Shown piece after piece: positions 24,248 through 28,802 of a DNA stretch of 64,000 nt. The translations under genes and the position numbers were made by a program. The stretch is from Clostridiales bacterium (GTDB taxonomy: Bacteria > Bacillota > Clostridia > TANB77 > CAG-508): the NCBI GenBank assembly GCA_003507395.1, contig DNVW01000013.1:47696-111695 (forward strand). The letters run 5' to 3'. How positions within the stretch are numbered: the first letter of the stretch is position 1; each line of letters begins with the position of its first letter. The notes beneath the pieces were generated by a model. The model had not been told where the DNA came from and searched no databases. It worked only from the letters and a program-made list of their open reading frames with translations.

Positions 24248-25015
24248 ATGAAACTAATATCTTGGAATGTTAATGGATTAAGAGCAAATATAACAAAAGG
24301 ATTTGAAAAATTTTTTAAAGAAGTAGATGCAGATATTTTTTGCATACAAGAAACGAAAATGCAAGAAGAACAGATAGATATAACCATTCAAGAATTATTT
24401 AAAAGTTATAATCAATATTGGAATAGCGCTGTAAAAAAAGGATATTCAGGTACTGCAATCTTTAGTAAAAAAAAGCCAATAAAAGTTACATATGGAATTG
24501 GAATAGAAGAACATGACAAAGAAGGAAGAATTATAACACTTGAATTTGAGGAATTTTTTATTGTAAATTGCTATACTCCAAATTCAAAACGAGAATTAGA
24601 AAGATTAGATTATAGAATGACTTGGGAGGATGAAATACGCAAATATCTATTAAAACTAGATAAAATAAAGCCTGTAATATATTGTGGAGATTTAAATGTA
24701 GCACATAAAGAAATTGATTTAAAAAATCCAAAAACAAATAGAAGAAATGCAGGTTTTACAGATGAAGAAAGAGGTAAAATGACAGAATTGTTAGAAGCAG
24801 GATTTACAGATACTTTTAGATATTTATATCCAGATAAAGAAAATGCTTATTCTTGGTGGTCATATATGGCAAAAGCAAGGGAAAAAAATATAGGTTGGAG
24901 AATAGACTATTTTATAGTATCCAAATCTATCGAAAATAAAATAGAAGATTCGATAATATATTCGGAAGTTATGGGAAGTGATCATTGCCCAGTAGGATTA
25001 AAAATTAAAATATGA
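24248..25015 (+). CDS. xth: Exodeoxyribonuclease III
   Basis: MKLISWNVNGLRA and EEP-fold motifs; 255 aa. Confidence 0.88.
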   Translation: MKLISWNVNGLRANITKGFEKFFKEVDADIFCIQETKMQEEQIDITIQELFKSYNQYWNSAVKKGYSGTAIFSKKKPIKVTYGIGIEEHDKEGRIITLEFEEFFIVNCYTPNSKRELERLDYRMTWEDEIRKYLLKLDKIKPVIYCGDLNVAHKEIDLKNPKTNRRNAGFTDEERGKMTELLEAGFTDTFRYLYPDKENAYSWWSYMAKAREKNIGWRIDYFIVSKSIENKIEDSIIYSEVMGSDHCPVGLKIKI

Positions 25016-25028
25016 AAGGATAAAAAAT

Positions 25029-26150
25029 ATGGAAGGGAAAAAGCGTACATTAACTAAATGGCTTTATTGGTTTGTATTTGCTGTTGCAGTAATACTGGTA
25101 TACAAAACAGTAGATAATTTAGGAGAAATATCTATATGGTTTAAAAAGCTGTTTTCAATTTTAATGCCGTTTGTAATAGGGATTTTAATAGCATATTTAT
25201 TTTATATTCCGGCAAGAAATCTTGAAAAAACTTATTCAAGAATTAAAAATAAATTTATAAAAAAAAGAGCCAGGGGAATAGCTATATTTACTATATATAT
25301 AATAGCAATGATTGTAATTGTACTGATAATAAATTTTATAGTGCCTACAATAATAGAAAGCATAAAAGATTTAATAAGTAATTTTCAAACTTATTACAAT
25401 GAAACAATAACTGTATTAAACAATTTACCAGAAGACTCATTCTTAAAAAATGAAATAATATATAAATTAGCAGAACAAATAAAAAATATAGATATAGAAA
25501 AATACTTTAATTTCGAACAATTAGCACAATATGCTAAAGGTGCAATTAATATAGTTACCAGTATATTTGATATTTTTGTTTCAGTTATTGTATCTGTATA
25601 CATACTTTTGGAAAGAGATCAAATAATAAGATTTTTAAAAAGTTTAACAAAAAGACTATTTAAAGAAAGAACCTACAACAATATTGTGAATTATTTTGAC
25701 CAAACAAACAATATATTTTTTCATTTTATATCAAGCCAATTATTAGATGGAATAATTGTAGGCATAATAACTTCTATTGCAATGCAAATAATGGGAGTAA
25801 AATATGCAATATTGCTAGGATTTATGATAGGATTATTCAATTTAATACCATATTTTGGAGCAATAATAGCTGTAATAATAGCAGCAATAATTACAATATT
25901 TACAGGTGGATTTAATCAAGCTATATGGATGGTAATAGTAGTGACAATTTTACAACAAATAGATGCAAATATAATAAATCCAAAAATAACAGGAAATTCA
26001 CTAAAAATAAGTCCACTGCTAGTAATTTTTGCAGTAACTGTAGGTGGAGCATACTTTGGAGTACTAGGAATGTTTTTAGCAGTTCCAATAATAGCCGTTT
26101 TAAAGCTATTAATAGAAGACTATATAAAAAGTGGTGAAAAGCAAATATAA
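25029..26150 (+). CDS. AI-2E-family (UPF0118) transporter
   Basis: 373 aa polytopic membrane protein with an AI-2E-like pattern. Confidence 0.65.
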   Translation: MEGKKRTLTKWLYWFVFAVAVILVYKTVDNLGEISIWFKKLFSILMPFVIGILIAYLFYIPARNLEKTYSRIKNKFIKKRARGIAIFTIYIIAMIVIVLIINFIVPTIIESIKDLISNFQTYYNETITVLNNLPEDSFLKNEIIYKLAEQIKNIDIEKYFNFEQLAQYAKGAINIVTSIFDIFVSVIVSVYILLERDQIIRFLKSLTKRLFKERTYNNIVNYFDQTNNIFFHFISSQLLDGIIVGIITSIAMQIMGVKYAILLGFMIGLFNLIPYFGAIIAVIIAAIITIFTGGFNQAIWMVIVVTILQQIDANIINPKITGNSLKISPLLVIFAVTVGGAYFGVLGMFLAVPIIAVLKLLIEDYIKSGEKQI

Positions 26151-26211
26151 ATATATACATAAAAATCGGCATTAGTGTAAAAGGAAGGCTTAGTTATAAG
26201 CCTTACCGAAA

Positions 26212-26240
26212 TATTGACAAAAGCGCGAAATAAGTGTAAA
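26212..26240 (+). promoter_or_regulatory. sigma-A-like promoter (TTGACA-17-TAAAAT) for gdpP
   Basis: Seen directly; a hairpin (AAGGCTTA/TAAGCCTT) lies just upstream. Confidence 0.45.
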
Positions 26241-26265
26241 ATTAATAGGTAATTAGGAGGAATTT

Positions 26266-28263
26266 ATGCCGAGCAATAAAAAAATATTTGATAAACTAAT
26301 ATCACGCGTAAAAATATATTTGGTAATTATAGCCATACTTTTGACAATTATTTGTATAAATAATGTTAATTTTATAATGCCATCGATTTTATTTTACGCT
26401 TTAATAGTAGGATATGCTTATTGGAGTAATCAAAAAAGAAAGGAAGAACTTTCTGAGCATATAGAGCACTTAACTTTTAGTGTAGATAAAGCAGCAAAAG
26501 GAACACTAATAAATTCTCCTTTTCCATTGATAATATTAGAAACAAATGGAAATGTTATTTTAAAGAATGAAAAATTTTCTAAAGAATTCATCAATATAGA
26601 TATTAATAATTACTTAGAAAATATACTTAAAGAACTTAAACAAGAAATAGAAAATGGGGAATTAGAAGAAAATAGAAATATATGCAAAGAAGTACTAATT
26701 GGAAATAAAACATATAAATTATTAGGAGAGTATATAGAACTAAAAAATAAACAACAAATGATTACATTATATTTTGTTGATAATACAGAGTTAGTAAAAA
26801 CAGAAGAAAAATATATTAATTCACAAAATTGTATTGGTATAATGATGATAGACAATTATGAAGAATTAATACAAAGAATAGAAAATGAAGATAAGTCTAC
26901 ACTTACAGCACAAATAGAAAAAAATATATATGAATGGGCATCAAAATTTGAAGGACTAGTAATAAAATCTGAAAGAGATACATATGTATTCATATTTGAG
27001 CAAAAGTATTTAATTGAAATAGAAAATAAAAAATTTAGTATTTTAGATGAAATAAAAGAGCTAGAGTGGGCAAATAAAGTACAATTTACTTTAAGTATAG
27101 CAGTTTCAAATGAGGGTAAGTCAAATTATGAGAAATATAAATCAGCACAAGCTGGATTAGATATTGTTTTAGGACGTGGTGGAGACCAAGCTGTTGTGAG
27201 AGAAAGCGGAAAATATGTATTTTTTGGAGGAAGAGCACAGGAAGTAGAAAAAAGAACTAAAGTAAAAGCAAGAACAGTAGCACATGCACTTAAAGAATTA
27301 ATTTTGGAAGCTGAAAATGTAATGATAATGGGACATTCAAATTCAGATATGGATTGTATTGGCTCTAGTATGGGATTATATAGACTAGCAAGAACATTAG
27401 GAAAAAATACATATATAGTAAACAATTCTTATGGAATCGGATTAGAAAACTTTATTGAAAAAGCAAAAGATGATGAAGAATACAAAAATATAATTATAAA
27501 CAAAAATGAAGCATTATCTAAAATAAATCCAGAAACTTTATTAATTGTTGTAGATACAAGTAAGAAAAATTATGTAGAAGTTCCAGAACTATTAGAAGAA
27601 ACTGAAAAAATAGTAGTAATAGATCATCATAGAAGAAGTACAGAATATATAGAAGATGCAACATTAATGTTTCACGAAGTTTATGCTTCTTCAGCGGCAG
27701 AACTTGTTACAGAAATATTAGAGTATTCACAAGAAGAAATAAAATTAACAGAATTAGAAGCAGAAGCATTATATGCAGGAATTATGATGGATACAAAGAA
27801 CTTTACTTTTAAAACAGGTGTCAGAACATTTGAAGCAGCGGCATATTTAAGAAGATATGGAATAGATACAATAAAAGTAAAAAAATGGTTCCAAAGTGAT
27901 TTAGCAACTTATAATAAAATTTCTAAAATAGTTGAAAAAGCAGAAGTCATAGAAAATTCGATAGCAATTGCTATTTACGAAGAAGAGGATAAAAATGCAA
28001 ATATTATATGTGCAAAGGCGGCAGATGAACTATTAACAATAAGTAATATAGTTGCATCCTTTGTAATTGGAATGATGGGCAACAAAGTGTGCATAAGTGG
28101 ACGTTCTATAGGTGATATAAATGTACAATTAATACTAGAAAAACTTGGTGGTGGAGGGCATATAACCCTAGCGGGAGCACAAGTAGAAGGAATGACAGTA
28201 GAAGAAGTAAAAATAGAATTAATAAATAGAATAAATGAATATTTTACTGAAATATCAAGTTAG
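26266..28263 (+). CDS. gdpP: Cyclic-di-AMP phosphodiesterase GdpP (two TM segments, PAS, degenerate GGDEF, DHH/DHHA1)
   Basis: 665 aa with DHH and GGGH motifs. The gdpP-rplI-dnaB arrangement is conserved across Firmicutes. Confidence 0.85.
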   Translation: MPSNKKIFDKLISRVKIYLVIIAILLTIICINNVNFIMPSILFYALIVGYAYWSNQKRKEELSEHIEHLTFSVDKAAKGTLINSPFPLIILETNGNVILKNEKFSKEFINIDINNYLENILKELKQEIENGELEENRNICKEVLIGNKTYKLLGEYIELKNKQQMITLYFVDNTELVKTEEKYINSQNCIGIMMIDNYEELIQRIENEDKSTLTAQIEKNIYEWASKFEGLVIKSERDTYVFIFEQKYLIEIENKKFSILDEIKELEWANKVQFTLSIAVSNEGKSNYEKYKSAQAGLDIVLGRGGDQAVVRESGKYVFFGGRAQEVEKRTKVKARTVAHALKELILEAENVMIMGHSNSDMDCIGSSMGLYRLARTLGKNTYIVNNSYGIGLENFIEKAKDDEEYKNIIINKNEALSKINPETLLIVVDTSKKNYVEVPELLEETEKIVVIDHHRRSTEYIEDATLMFHEVYASSAAELVTEILEYSQEEIKLTELEAEALYAGIMMDTKNFTFKTGVRTFEAAAYLRRYGIDTIKVKKWFQSDLATYNKISKIVEKAEVIENSIAIAIYEEEDKNANIICAKAADELLTISNIVASFVIGMMGNKVCISGRSIGDINVQLILEKLGGGGHITLAGAQVEGMTVEEVKIELINRINEYFTEISS

Positions 28264-28280
28264 AAAAGTAATTTAAAATA

Positions 28281-28320
28281 AAAAAAGAGGGCAATACTAA
28301 GAGTATTTGCCCTCTTCGAT
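28281..28320. terminator. Bidirectional intrinsic terminator (GAGGGCAA-tactaagagtat-TTGCCCTC flanked by A- and T-runs)
   Basis: 8-bp GC-rich stem between convergent gdpP (+) and the small ORF (-). Confidence 0.65.
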
Positions 28321-28362
28321 TGTGTTTATCCACAATCTCACGTTATTCAACGTTAAAAGTTT

Positions 28363-28533
28363 TTAACCCCTCTTGGTTCCGTCAGACCAAAAGCACTCTC
28401 CAGTGTACCGACAGTATAGACTGCCGTCTGTCAACTCTTCAAGATCGCCGTTATCTTTAGCGTTCTCGACTTCAGTTTCATCAAGGTTGCCATCGTTATC
28501 AACGACATAATCATTGCTGAGTTTCCATGCCAT
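28363..28533 (-). CDS. Small acidic 56-aa protein (MAWKLSNDYVVDNDGNLDETEVENAKDNGDLEELTDGSLYCRYTGECFWSDGTKRG); function unknown, candidate secreted peptide or small regulator
   Basis: SD AAAGGAGGT sits 9 nt before ATG 28533. It has its own promoter and terminator. The track's longer ORF (to 28617) lacks an RBS. Confidence 0.6.
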   Translation of the reverse strand: MAWKLSNDYVVDNDGNLDETEVENAKDNGDLEELTDGSLYCRYTGECFWSDGTKRG

Positions 28534-28621
28534 AGAGAAGTACCTCCTTTCATAAAATATTGATTTTAGAAATGAAAGACTGTTGAATAACGTGTAGTTA
28601 CCAAAATATGTAACCAACTTA

Positions 28622-28650
28622 AGTATACTACATGATTAAAATAAAGTCAA
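28622..28650 (-). promoter_or_regulatory. sigma-A-like promoter on the minus strand (TTGACT-17-TATACT) driving the 56-aa ORF
   Basis: Reverse complement of 28622-28650. The implied TSS gives a 5' UTR of about 80-90 nt. Confidence 0.5.
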
Positions 28651-28802
28651 TATATTTGGTAAAGTAGATAGTATTGTTTTGTAAATTTTATTCTTCAGCA
28701 AAATTATTACAGTTCAGATTTAAAACACTTGAAAAAAAGGCAATTATGATATATTATATAATATGTAAAAATATATAAAAATTTGAAAGGAAGGATAATT
28801 AT

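Follow-up and report, generated by a model that had tools for sequence, protein, structure and literature searches.

What is a 56-residue open reading frame (ORF) doing on the minus strand between gdpP and rplI of an uncultured Clostridiales bacterium, and why is it bracketed by a perfect 13-base-pair (bp) inverted repeat? We examined this small gene within a window of 64,000 nucleotides (nt) (GenBank assembly GCA_003507395.1, contig DNVW01000013.1, positions 47,696 to 111,695 of the forward strand), to which all coordinates refer. An original prediction, made from the window alone, had proposed a precursor of a secreted or modified peptide, a small Ca-binding regulator, or the cargo of a tiny mobile cassette delimited by the repeats. 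We find that the ORF is a real protein-coding gene of an unannotated small-protein family, and that the inverted repeat acts in RNA, not DNA, as a conserved helix joining the untranslated regions (UTRs) at the 5′ and 3′ ends of the message. With a confidence slightly better than even, we favor a combined reading in which a monocistronic small-protein gene carries a stabilizing UTR clamp and occupies an old locus that is exchanged between strains.

The ORF belongs to an unannotated family of small proteins

The exact window protein is present in GenBank as CDD16710.1, 'unknown [Clostridium sp. CAG:798]', and occurs on 379 contigs. A HMMER scan of 1.84 billion representative proteins returned small relatives at 43–51% identity, and the family comprised at least 51 clusters after two profile iterations, answering the call of the original prediction for a homologue search. 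All members have 50–75 residues, bar one 32-residue entry, all are unnamed and free of Pfam domains, and each stands alone instead of being fused to a larger protein. Their sources are metagenomes and metagenome-assembled genomes (MAGs) of uncultured Clostridia only. Three residues are invariant (A25, D51 and G52) and four nearly so (Y9, E21, G37 and W49), within the consensus M-S-W-x-x-D-x-Y-x-x-D-x-D-G-N-x(5)-E-x-E-R-A-x-x-N-G-D-L-x-x-L-S-N-G-x-x-Y-D-x-x-T-G-E-E-Y-W-x-D-G-T-K-K.

Divergence statistics support coding. Between the window gene (allele A) and a second version found at the same locus (allele B), nonsynonymous divergence (dN) is 0.27 and synonymous divergence (dS) is saturated, while allele B and the gene of a sister species give a dN/dS of 0.17. 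A strong Shine-Dalgarno (SD) sequence with proper spacing precedes nearly all family members. We also searched GTDB representative genomes using a hand-made degenerate pattern, which matched all 27 loci then in hand but misses the P0020 group, so that its yield is a lower bound. It found at least four true members, all in MAGs of uncultured Clostridia from animal guts, together with four chance matches.

The window protein has no match in Pfam, NCBIfam, PHROGs or PADLOC. Its relatives gave sub-threshold EF-hand and XopAW matches, the unnamed phrog_25574 (4 members, best E = 7e-4) and weak AbiEi noise. A sequence profile search of the PDB returned chance matches only, and we found no description of this protein family in the literature. 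HMMER matches to the giant proteins P0005, P0008 and P0012 were rejected as non-homologous, being summed weak repeat matches or FG-GAP-like DxDxDG loops. One further sequence, P0004 (62 residues, on a 594-nt contig), follows allele A for its first 30 residues and then continues into an unrelated 32-residue tail, which is no simple frameshift of known DNA. It may mark another junction or an assembly break within the ORF.

As RNA, the inverted repeat pairs the 5′ UTR with the 3′ UTR

The arms of the repeat are CACGTTATTCAAC at 28339–28351 and GTTGAATAACGTG at 28582–28594. Allowing one mismatch, the arm sequence occurs only these two times in 64 kb, where 0.06 occurrences are expected by chance, which argues that the repeat is not a chance match. 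We compared the 122 nt upstream with the 75 nt downstream of the small gene and of 44 other genes in the window. The 13-nt complement between the flanks of the small gene is the longest of the 45; the other genes reach 6–9 nt, with two 12-nt pure-A/T exceptions.

The predicted transcript (28615–28275) folds with z = −9.3 relative to shuffled sequences. In this fold a hairpin P1, the clamp formed by the two repeat arms, a hairpin P3 and the terminator make a compact junction, separated by single-nucleotide gaps. The parts of the unit are as follows.

28622–28650, minus strand: sigma-A-type promoter, TTGACT (28650–28645), 17-nt spacer, TATACT (28627–28622); 10 of 12 consensus positions matched
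28596–28615, minus strand: P1, a 6-bp hairpin (GGUUAC / GUAACU) seen in folding, beginning about 7 nt past the −10 box
28582–28594, minus strand: 5′ clamp arm, CACGUUAUUCAAC, whose end lies 48 nt before the ATG; pairs with 28339–28351 in the minimum-free-energy fold of the whole transcript
28542–28550, minus strand: SD sequence, AAAGGAGGU, outside the clamp
28363–28533, minus strand: coding sequence (CDS) of 56 residues, MAWKLSNDYVVDNDGNLDETEVENAKDNGDLEELTDGSLYCRYTGECFWSDGTKRG, stop included (TAA at 28365–28363)
28471–28506, minus strand: EF-hand-like loop, codons 10–21, VVDNDGNLDETE; loop positions 3, 5, 6, 8, 9 and 12 fit, position 1 misfits
28339–28351, minus strand: 3′ arm of the UTR clamp, GUUGAAUAACGUG, beginning 11 nt past the stop codon
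28318–28337, minus strand: P3, a 7-bp 3′-UTR hairpin (GAUUGUG / CACAAUC), 1 nt each from the clamp and the terminator
28279–28316, minus strand: intrinsic terminator, a 10+3-bp stem with one bulged A, then a U-run; 22 nt past the gdpP stop codon of the other strand
28250–28726: allelic block, with 49–84% identity per 50-nt bin between contigs of the same species

The original prediction had correctly placed the minus-strand promoter TTGACT-17-TATACT (28650–28622), the strong SD sequence (AAAGGAGGT at 28550–28542, with 9 nt from GGAGG to the ATG at 28533), the ORF with its translation (28533–28363) and the perfect repeat that brackets it from 5′ UTR to 3′ UTR. Its bidirectional terminator survives in part. 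Folding predicts the G+C-rich hairpin (28316–28285, followed by T7), but the T-run is on the minus-strand side only; on the gdpP strand, CGATTGTG comes after the hairpin. A simple terminator scan misses the hairpin, probably because the bulged A breaks the stem. In allele B (L018) the promoter is TTGATT-17-TATAAT and stands at an unchanged position with respect to the first hairpin. P1 probably lies at the extreme 5′ end of the mRNA, given the start site predicted from the promoter, and its stem is intact in all six sequences aligned below, while the loops vary.

The six sequences comprise three of allele A, one of allele B and two from the sister species. Standard pairs fill 98.3% of the cells in this alignment (98.7% in the clamp and 100% in P3), against 33–46% after sliding the partner columns. 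In nine pairs both partners have changed; four of these belong to the clamp (of 13 pairs) and four to P3 (of 7). The clamp changes are A-U to G-C at two positions, G-C to A-U at one and C-G to U-A at one. This is good, though not overwhelming, evidence for the clamp.

The stronger argument is recurrence across loci. A perfect complement of at least 10 nt between 5′ and 3′ UTR (10–16 nt) is found in 8 of 14 distinct family loci, compared to 1.7% of 172 non-cognate UTR pairs (Mann-Whitney p = 1e-6), and the clamp is present in the minimum-free-energy fold of the whole transcript at all ten loci tested. The arms are unrelated in sequence between subfamilies, and a separate terminator always lies downstream. 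The helices of L018, L012 and L022 contain G-U wobbles, which would be A-C mismatches on the opposite strand. Covariation, G-U pairs that are possible only in the sense strand and recurrence with unrelated arms together argue for an RNA helix and not for the terminal repeats of a transposon. Rfam was searched with the window at gathering thresholds and with the region at E ≤ 1; the sole match, mir-46 on the terminator, is a chance one.

An EF-hand-like loop precedes a conserved C-terminal segment

Family-wide, residues 10–21 fit an EF-hand loop at positions 3, 5, 6, 8, 9 and 12. Among 52 members, D12 is kept in 40, D14 in 35, G15 in 46 and E21 in 48, and position 17 is F, Y, I, L or V in all. 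Loop position 1 is Val10 in the window protein and Lys (17), Arg (11), Val (5) or Asp (5) in the 52 members, with Asp appearing only in allele B (P0016) and the P0020 group. P0016, from the same locus, has a complete DxDxDGxIxxxE loop (DVDDDGNISEDE) and matches four Pfam EF-hand models, all below threshold: EF-hand_6 is best (E = 6e-4, 19.7 bits against a cut-off of 25), and EF-hand_1 gives 17.1 bits against 25.4. The window protein has no Pfam EF-hand match at E ≤ 10. The DxDxDG-like spacing noted in the original prediction is present as xxDxDG, but position 1 is Val10 and the allele reads VVDNDG. The proposal of a small Ca-binding regulator fares likewise: six loop positions agree with it, whereas position 1 and the sub-threshold Pfam scores do not. 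Ca binding is the best lead among the earlier readings, and a reasonable, unproven hypothesis suggested by the sequence motif.

For both alleles AlphaFold2 predicts a small α+β fold (predicted local distance difference test score of 75–76), comprised of a short N-terminal turn, the loop, a helix at residues 19–28 and short strands at 31–33, 39–41 and 46–48. Residues 19–28 form the exiting helix, while the entering helix has just three residues (6–8), with a single motif per chain. The resemblance to EF-hands (PF13405, PF00036, PF13202 and PF13499) thus lies in the loop x-x-D-x-D-G-x-[FYIL]-[STDN]-x-x-E, with a helix starting from about loop position 10, and in the full D-x-D-x-D-G-x-I-x-x-x-E of P0016. 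The differences are the single motif in place of a pair, the rudimentary entering helix, the Val or mostly Lys/Arg at position 1 and a C-terminal β-hairpin module that has no EF-hand counterpart.

This C-terminal segment is the best-conserved part of the family. It contains the two cysteines of the window protein, which are not family features: the C41 position is Asp in 40 of 52 members, Cys in 8 and Asn in 4, and the C47 position is Glu in 37 and Cys in 4, Cys being confined there to the allele group of the window. The window protein is acidic (14 D+E, 5 K+R) and has no hydrophobic stretch.

Base composition and the role of the clamp

The ORF has a G+C content of 46% and a third-position G+C fraction (GC3) of 0.47, compared to GC3 values of 0.13–0.16 for gdpP, rplI, dnaB and other neighbors. 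GC3 is raised in all ten loci from other hosts that we examined. The small gene has 0.19–0.61 against 0.10–0.20 for neighboring long ORFs (L007, L014, L018, L022, L025, L030, L031, L032 and L035), and the comparison for L013 is made without a long-ORF baseline. Rare codons, among them CGG, CTC, GTC and GGC, appear in the small gene, in a genome with 28% G+C. Since the GC3 excess persists between alleles with saturated synonymous sites, it has been kept by selection or repeatedly imported.

We propose that the gene is monocistronic and that its product, from a family not named before, is a small protein, soluble and cytoplasmic, which would consist of an EF-hand-like helix-loop-helix followed by the conserved β-hairpin motif NG-x-[YFL]-[YW]-D-x-x-T-G-E-E-Y-W-x-D-G-T-K-K. 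Pairing of the 5′ and 3′ UTRs would close the whole ORF into a loop, and P1, clamp, P3 and terminator would form a compact junction that buries both ends of the mRNA. The clamp may shield the message from ribonucleases (RNases), so that its lifetime would be coupled to translation from the strong SD sequence. The G+C-enriched CDS may serve the same protective end.

By analogy, a stabilizing role is the most likely one for the clamp, since the SD sequence lies outside the helix and is near-perfect, and a hairpin occupies the 5′ end. The closest characterized analogue is the hbs mRNA of B. subtilis, in which a 14-bp interaction between 5′ and 3′ UTR restrains RNase Y from cleaving the leader, and a strong SD sequence blocks RNase J1 (Braun, Durand and Condon 2017, PMC5737220). 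Like hbs, the present transcript is short and monocistronic and encodes a small protein; its UTR pairing, perfect over 13 bp, forms in the minimum-free-energy fold, and the host presumably has the Firmicute set of RNase Y and J1. Unlike in hbs, the clamp here adjoins 5′-terminal and 3′ hairpins to give a multi-helix junction, and it recurs across a protein family with unrelated arms and covariation, whereas conservation of the hbs 3′ UTR does not extend to close relatives (reviewed in PMC7821165).

The main rival is a negative role. The clamp, stacked on P1 and P3, would then be a double-stranded substrate for RNase III or a brake on ribosome access. Until processing or melting, the full-length mRNA would decay quickly or be a poor template for translation, as in icaR, or it would act as a thermosensor. 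We consider this reading unlikely though worth weighing. The precedent is icaR of S. aureus, where UTR pairing blocks the SD sequence and creates an RNase III site (PMC7821165). In both systems the 3′ UTR pairs with the 5′ UTR of its own mRNA and the duplex is a possible RNase III target. In several relatives, moreover, the 5′ arm ends 20–26 nt before the ATG, next to the SD sequence, and in the minimum-free-energy fold the SD sequence and ATG lie within a weak local hairpin. A link to temperature or stress would also fit two members that lie upstream of the hrcA-grpE-dnaK and groES-groEL operons. Against a negative role, the clamp contains neither an SD nor an anti-SD sequence and in the window ends well before the ATG, whereas icaR blocks its ribosome-binding site with an anti-SD UCCCC motif and has a 3′ UTR of about 390 nt, in place of a 3′ arm that starts just past the stop codon. 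A helix of 13–16 bp is also short for RNase III, and a 5′-terminal hairpin plus a strong SD sequence are classic stabilizing features in Firmicutes.

The two members beside chaperone operons belong to the 'NGHLE' subfamily and come from different MAGs. In gene-forward coordinates, the L030 gene (641–808) is co-directional with hrcA (from 1251), grpE and dnaK, and the L032 gene (317–484) with groES (863–1171) and groEL. Each has its own terminator.

Several points weigh against the combined reading of a small EF-hand-like protein and a stabilizing clamp. The covariation comes from just three independent lineages, and the structure tested was derived from the window sequence. The clamp is frequent in the family, not universal, being unconvincing in L007, L013, L031 and L035 and weak in L022 and L025 (4–6 of 14 loci). 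Excess structure within the CDS, measured by permutation of synonymous codons, is z = −2.7 here, −3.0 in L005 and about 0 in other members; since it is clear only in some members, RNA structure alone may be insufficient to account for the GC3 excess. The stabilizing role is an analogy, and the same helix could be an RNase III substrate or a translation tuner. The start site, transcript ends and translation are all predictions from sequence. EF-hand scores fall below every Pfam threshold, with Lys or Arg the usual residue at loop position 1, and Foldseek found no significant structural neighbor in the PDB or BFVD.

An old locus with deeply diverged alleles

The gene is flanked by gdpP and rplI. 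In contig L018 (98.7% identical), the same 665-residue and 148-residue genes have Pfam domains of GdpP/DHH/DHHA1 and of ribosomal L9, respectively. The window neighbors are gdpP, rplI, dnaB, an AI-2E transporter and ExoIII. As the original prediction had asked, we looked for the cassette in relatives. It is present in the gdpP-rplI slot of four contigs (L018–L021), which are 98.0–98.7% identical to the window over 8–16 kb with identical gene order; in L036–L038 the gene adjoins gdpP, and other family members are found in other contexts. The sister species, at 76–79% DNA identity, has a third version of the gene beside gdpP. A scan of metagenomes with a 26-mer from the conserved rplI-side flank retrieved two contigs only.

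The original prediction viewed the unit as an insertion into conserved synteny. It is indeed self-contained, foreign-looking in composition and on the opposite strand, but it is not recent, because the gene also adjoins gdpP in a second species. The gene is a long-term resident of the gdpP slot, where deeply diverged alleles coexist within one species. Flank identity is 96–100% in every 50-nt bin between 27050 and 29999 outside the block at 28250–28726; within these ~475 bp it falls to the 49–84% listed above, and the proteins of the two alleles are just 63% identical. The whole unit including the promoter is replaced in allele B, which retains a strong promoter at the equivalent position.

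Variation is also concentrated within the CDS. Compared with the window, L002 has 12 substitutions across the 168-nt CDS, 3 across 295 nt of non-coding cassette and 0 across 1452 nt of flanks (p = 1e-12), and L040 and L004 show similar patterns. The 90% identity cluster contains 24 distinct 56-residue sequences, including mosaics such as P0065. Among close allele-A variants dN/dS is 0.2–1.0, from few sites. The + strand is the leading strand throughout the window, and the small gene is head-on. Possible causes of the hypervariability are recombination among alleles, diversifying selection, or mutagenesis of a strongly transcribed head-on gene. A diversity-generating retroelement was rejected: by eye the substitutions are not adenine-specific, and we noticed no reverse transcriptase among the ORFs near the locus. 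In the reading we favor, the locus is exchanged between strains as a ~475-bp block and also diversifies within the CDS.

Could the unit nevertheless be a mobile or moron-like cassette that uses the inverted repeats, or a flanking AT-rich palindrome, as recombination sites? Phage morons are self-contained promoter-gene-terminator units of deviant composition, and the small gene resembles them as an autonomous opposite-strand transcription unit with its own promoter and terminator, a G+C content unlike its neighbors and a GC3 three times that of the host. Family members occur in unrelated contexts, and L001/L039 and L040 join the cassette to other DNA at 28760–28766, at the center of the palindrome 28743–28772. 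We nonetheless regard a mobile cassette as very unlikely. The repeat arms do not mark its boundaries in the way the original prediction proposed: they lie inside the transcript and co-vary as RNA pairs, members in other genomes have unrelated arms, and the variable segment extends well beyond both arms, its ends coinciding with neither. The arm sequence has no further copies in the window, no direct repeat flanks the arms (by eye), and neither a transposase nor an integrase accompanies them. DNA, protein and pattern searches of IMG/VR, GenBank phages and PLSDB plasmids found no relatives, and unlike a moron this gene is chromosomal and adjoins gdpP in two species. Homologous replacement would leave the block edges within conserved flanks, which is where they lie, and partial conservation of a G5 / ExoIII / AI-2E / TatD neighborhood in distant members suggests vertical descent. 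L001, at 2.3x coverage, fuses truncated essential genes and may be chimeric. The locus is a discrete, exchangeable unit, though not a repeat-bounded mobile element.

Some details of these contexts are of separate interest. L001/L039 (NODE_7914, 5757 nt, 2.3x) contains a 580-bp copy of the cassette (28181–28760), 95.9% identical and with the P0003 allele, between unrelated DNA on both sides; on one side an in-frame fusion joins the last ~20 codons of gdpP to a truncated mnmE, after which come jag and a truncated yidC. Either the contig is a chimera assembled from low coverage, or it contains a second cassette copy that has been rearranged. L040 (OJMO01000117.1, 60.7 kb) matches the window from 28766 into gdpP, and its first 34 nt differ from the region upstream of rplI. 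The breaks in L040 and L001 (28760) fall at the center of the palindrome, between ATTATGATATATTAT and ATAATATGTAAAAAT, in the rplI promoter region. Several other contigs end in or beside the cassette, as expected with strain differences or a repeat. The neighbors of the distant members L014 and L025 include a G5-domain protein, an ExoIII-family nuclease, an AI-2E transporter and TatD/ACPS, and the same G5/3D, ExoIII and AI-2E set lies just upstream of gdpP in the window (24248–28263), which hints that the family was kept in one chromosomal neighborhood through local rearrangements. Conjugation-type genes (VirB4/TraG-like ATPase, NlpC/P60) form a run that ends with the family member in L022–L024 (P0023, 63 residues), and this is the sole sign of a link to a mobile element.

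A broader, tentative reading we put forward as a conjecture with the odds against it. The family would be a closed-loop mRNA design inherited with its gene and built from a 5′-terminal hairpin, the UTR clamp, a G+C-enriched CDS and a terminator. The arms would be rebuilt with new sequence in each lineage, such that RNA architecture and not sequence is selected. The protein would be under frequency-dependent or arms-race selection, as suggested by ancient alleles within one species, mosaic variants and CDS-concentrated substitutions. This would suit a small protein whose partner varies, for instance a factor from a phage or a competitor, with contact that might depend on Ca2+.

Toxin-antitoxin, non-coding RNA and peptide precursor readings

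The gdpP gene lacks a U-run terminator of its own, and the sole hairpin past its stop codon is that of the small gene read backwards (28264–28320, + strand). Transcription of gdpP may continue towards rplI and cross the small gene antisense, much as in a non-contiguous operon, and this read-through could supply an antisense RNA to the small gene.

Another reading is a type I toxin-antitoxin-like or otherwise selfish module, in which the mRNA of a small toxic peptide is kept inert through an interaction of its ends. It would account for a locus that resembles a cassette and varies between strains. The hok and aapA1 type I toxin mRNAs have long-distance 5′–3′ interactions of this kind. As with these, the ends of a small-ORF mRNA pair here, in a self-contained cassette of foreign composition that varies between strains and sits between conserved genes. 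There is also a weak antisense promoter-like site at 28487–28514 (+ strand, 9/12 match), with a counterpart in allele B. However, the product is hydrophilic and acidic where a hydrophobic segment would be looked for, the long-range helix leaves the SD sequence unsequestered, and we see no sign of an antitoxin RNA. GGC-AAC codons create the antisense −35 incidentally, and the sister species lacks it (by eye); PADLOC gives nothing meaningful. We give this reading little credence.

Still less likely is a structured non-coding RNA with an incidental ORF: the very strong predicted structure, covariation that sits in the UTR helices and UTRs more conserved than the CDS among close alleles would fit it, but the protein is conserved through saturated synonymous divergence and in at least 51 clusters with unrelated UTRs, a strong SD sequence stands at the right distance in nearly all members, and no Rfam family matches.

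Equally hard to credit is the proposed Cys-modified or secreted ribosomal peptide precursor, with an acidic leader and a CRYTGEC core. It drew on the two cysteines of the window allele, five residues apart in an aromatic segment behind an acidic N-terminal part, but the pair is confined to one allele group and replaced elsewhere by Asp and Glu, the 'core' is the most conserved part and the 'leader' more variable, where such precursors show the opposite, and the neighborhood contains no processing genes. In the contexts examined, neither radical-SAM maturase, peptidase nor exporter genes accompany any member, other contexts being unrelated housekeeping genes. AlphaFold2 predicts a compact fold, and by eye the sequence shows no signal peptide or GG-type leader. 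A double-glycine leader was rejected as position −2 is Asp or Asn, not Gly.

Implications

An EF-hand-like small protein and an hbs-type UTR pairing are each of a kind already known. What is new is the combination of an unannotated family, a covariation-backed UTR clamp, a persistent GC3 excess and a sharp allelic dimorphism. The immediate impact is moderate, the source organism being uncultured. For small-protein discovery, the family adds one more unannotated group in the abundant uncultured gut Clostridia. Few bacterial mRNAs are known to pair their own UTRs, namely hbs, icaR and RNAIII/hld, and the 3′ UTRs in the known pairings are not conserved between related species (PMC7821165). A covarying UTR pairing that recurs across a family would provide a comparative test case for end-to-end mRNA pairing in Firmicutes. 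The sharply bounded hot spot of intraspecific diversity beside a cyclic di-AMP phosphodiesterase gene is the signature that is sought in genes of conflict and recognition.

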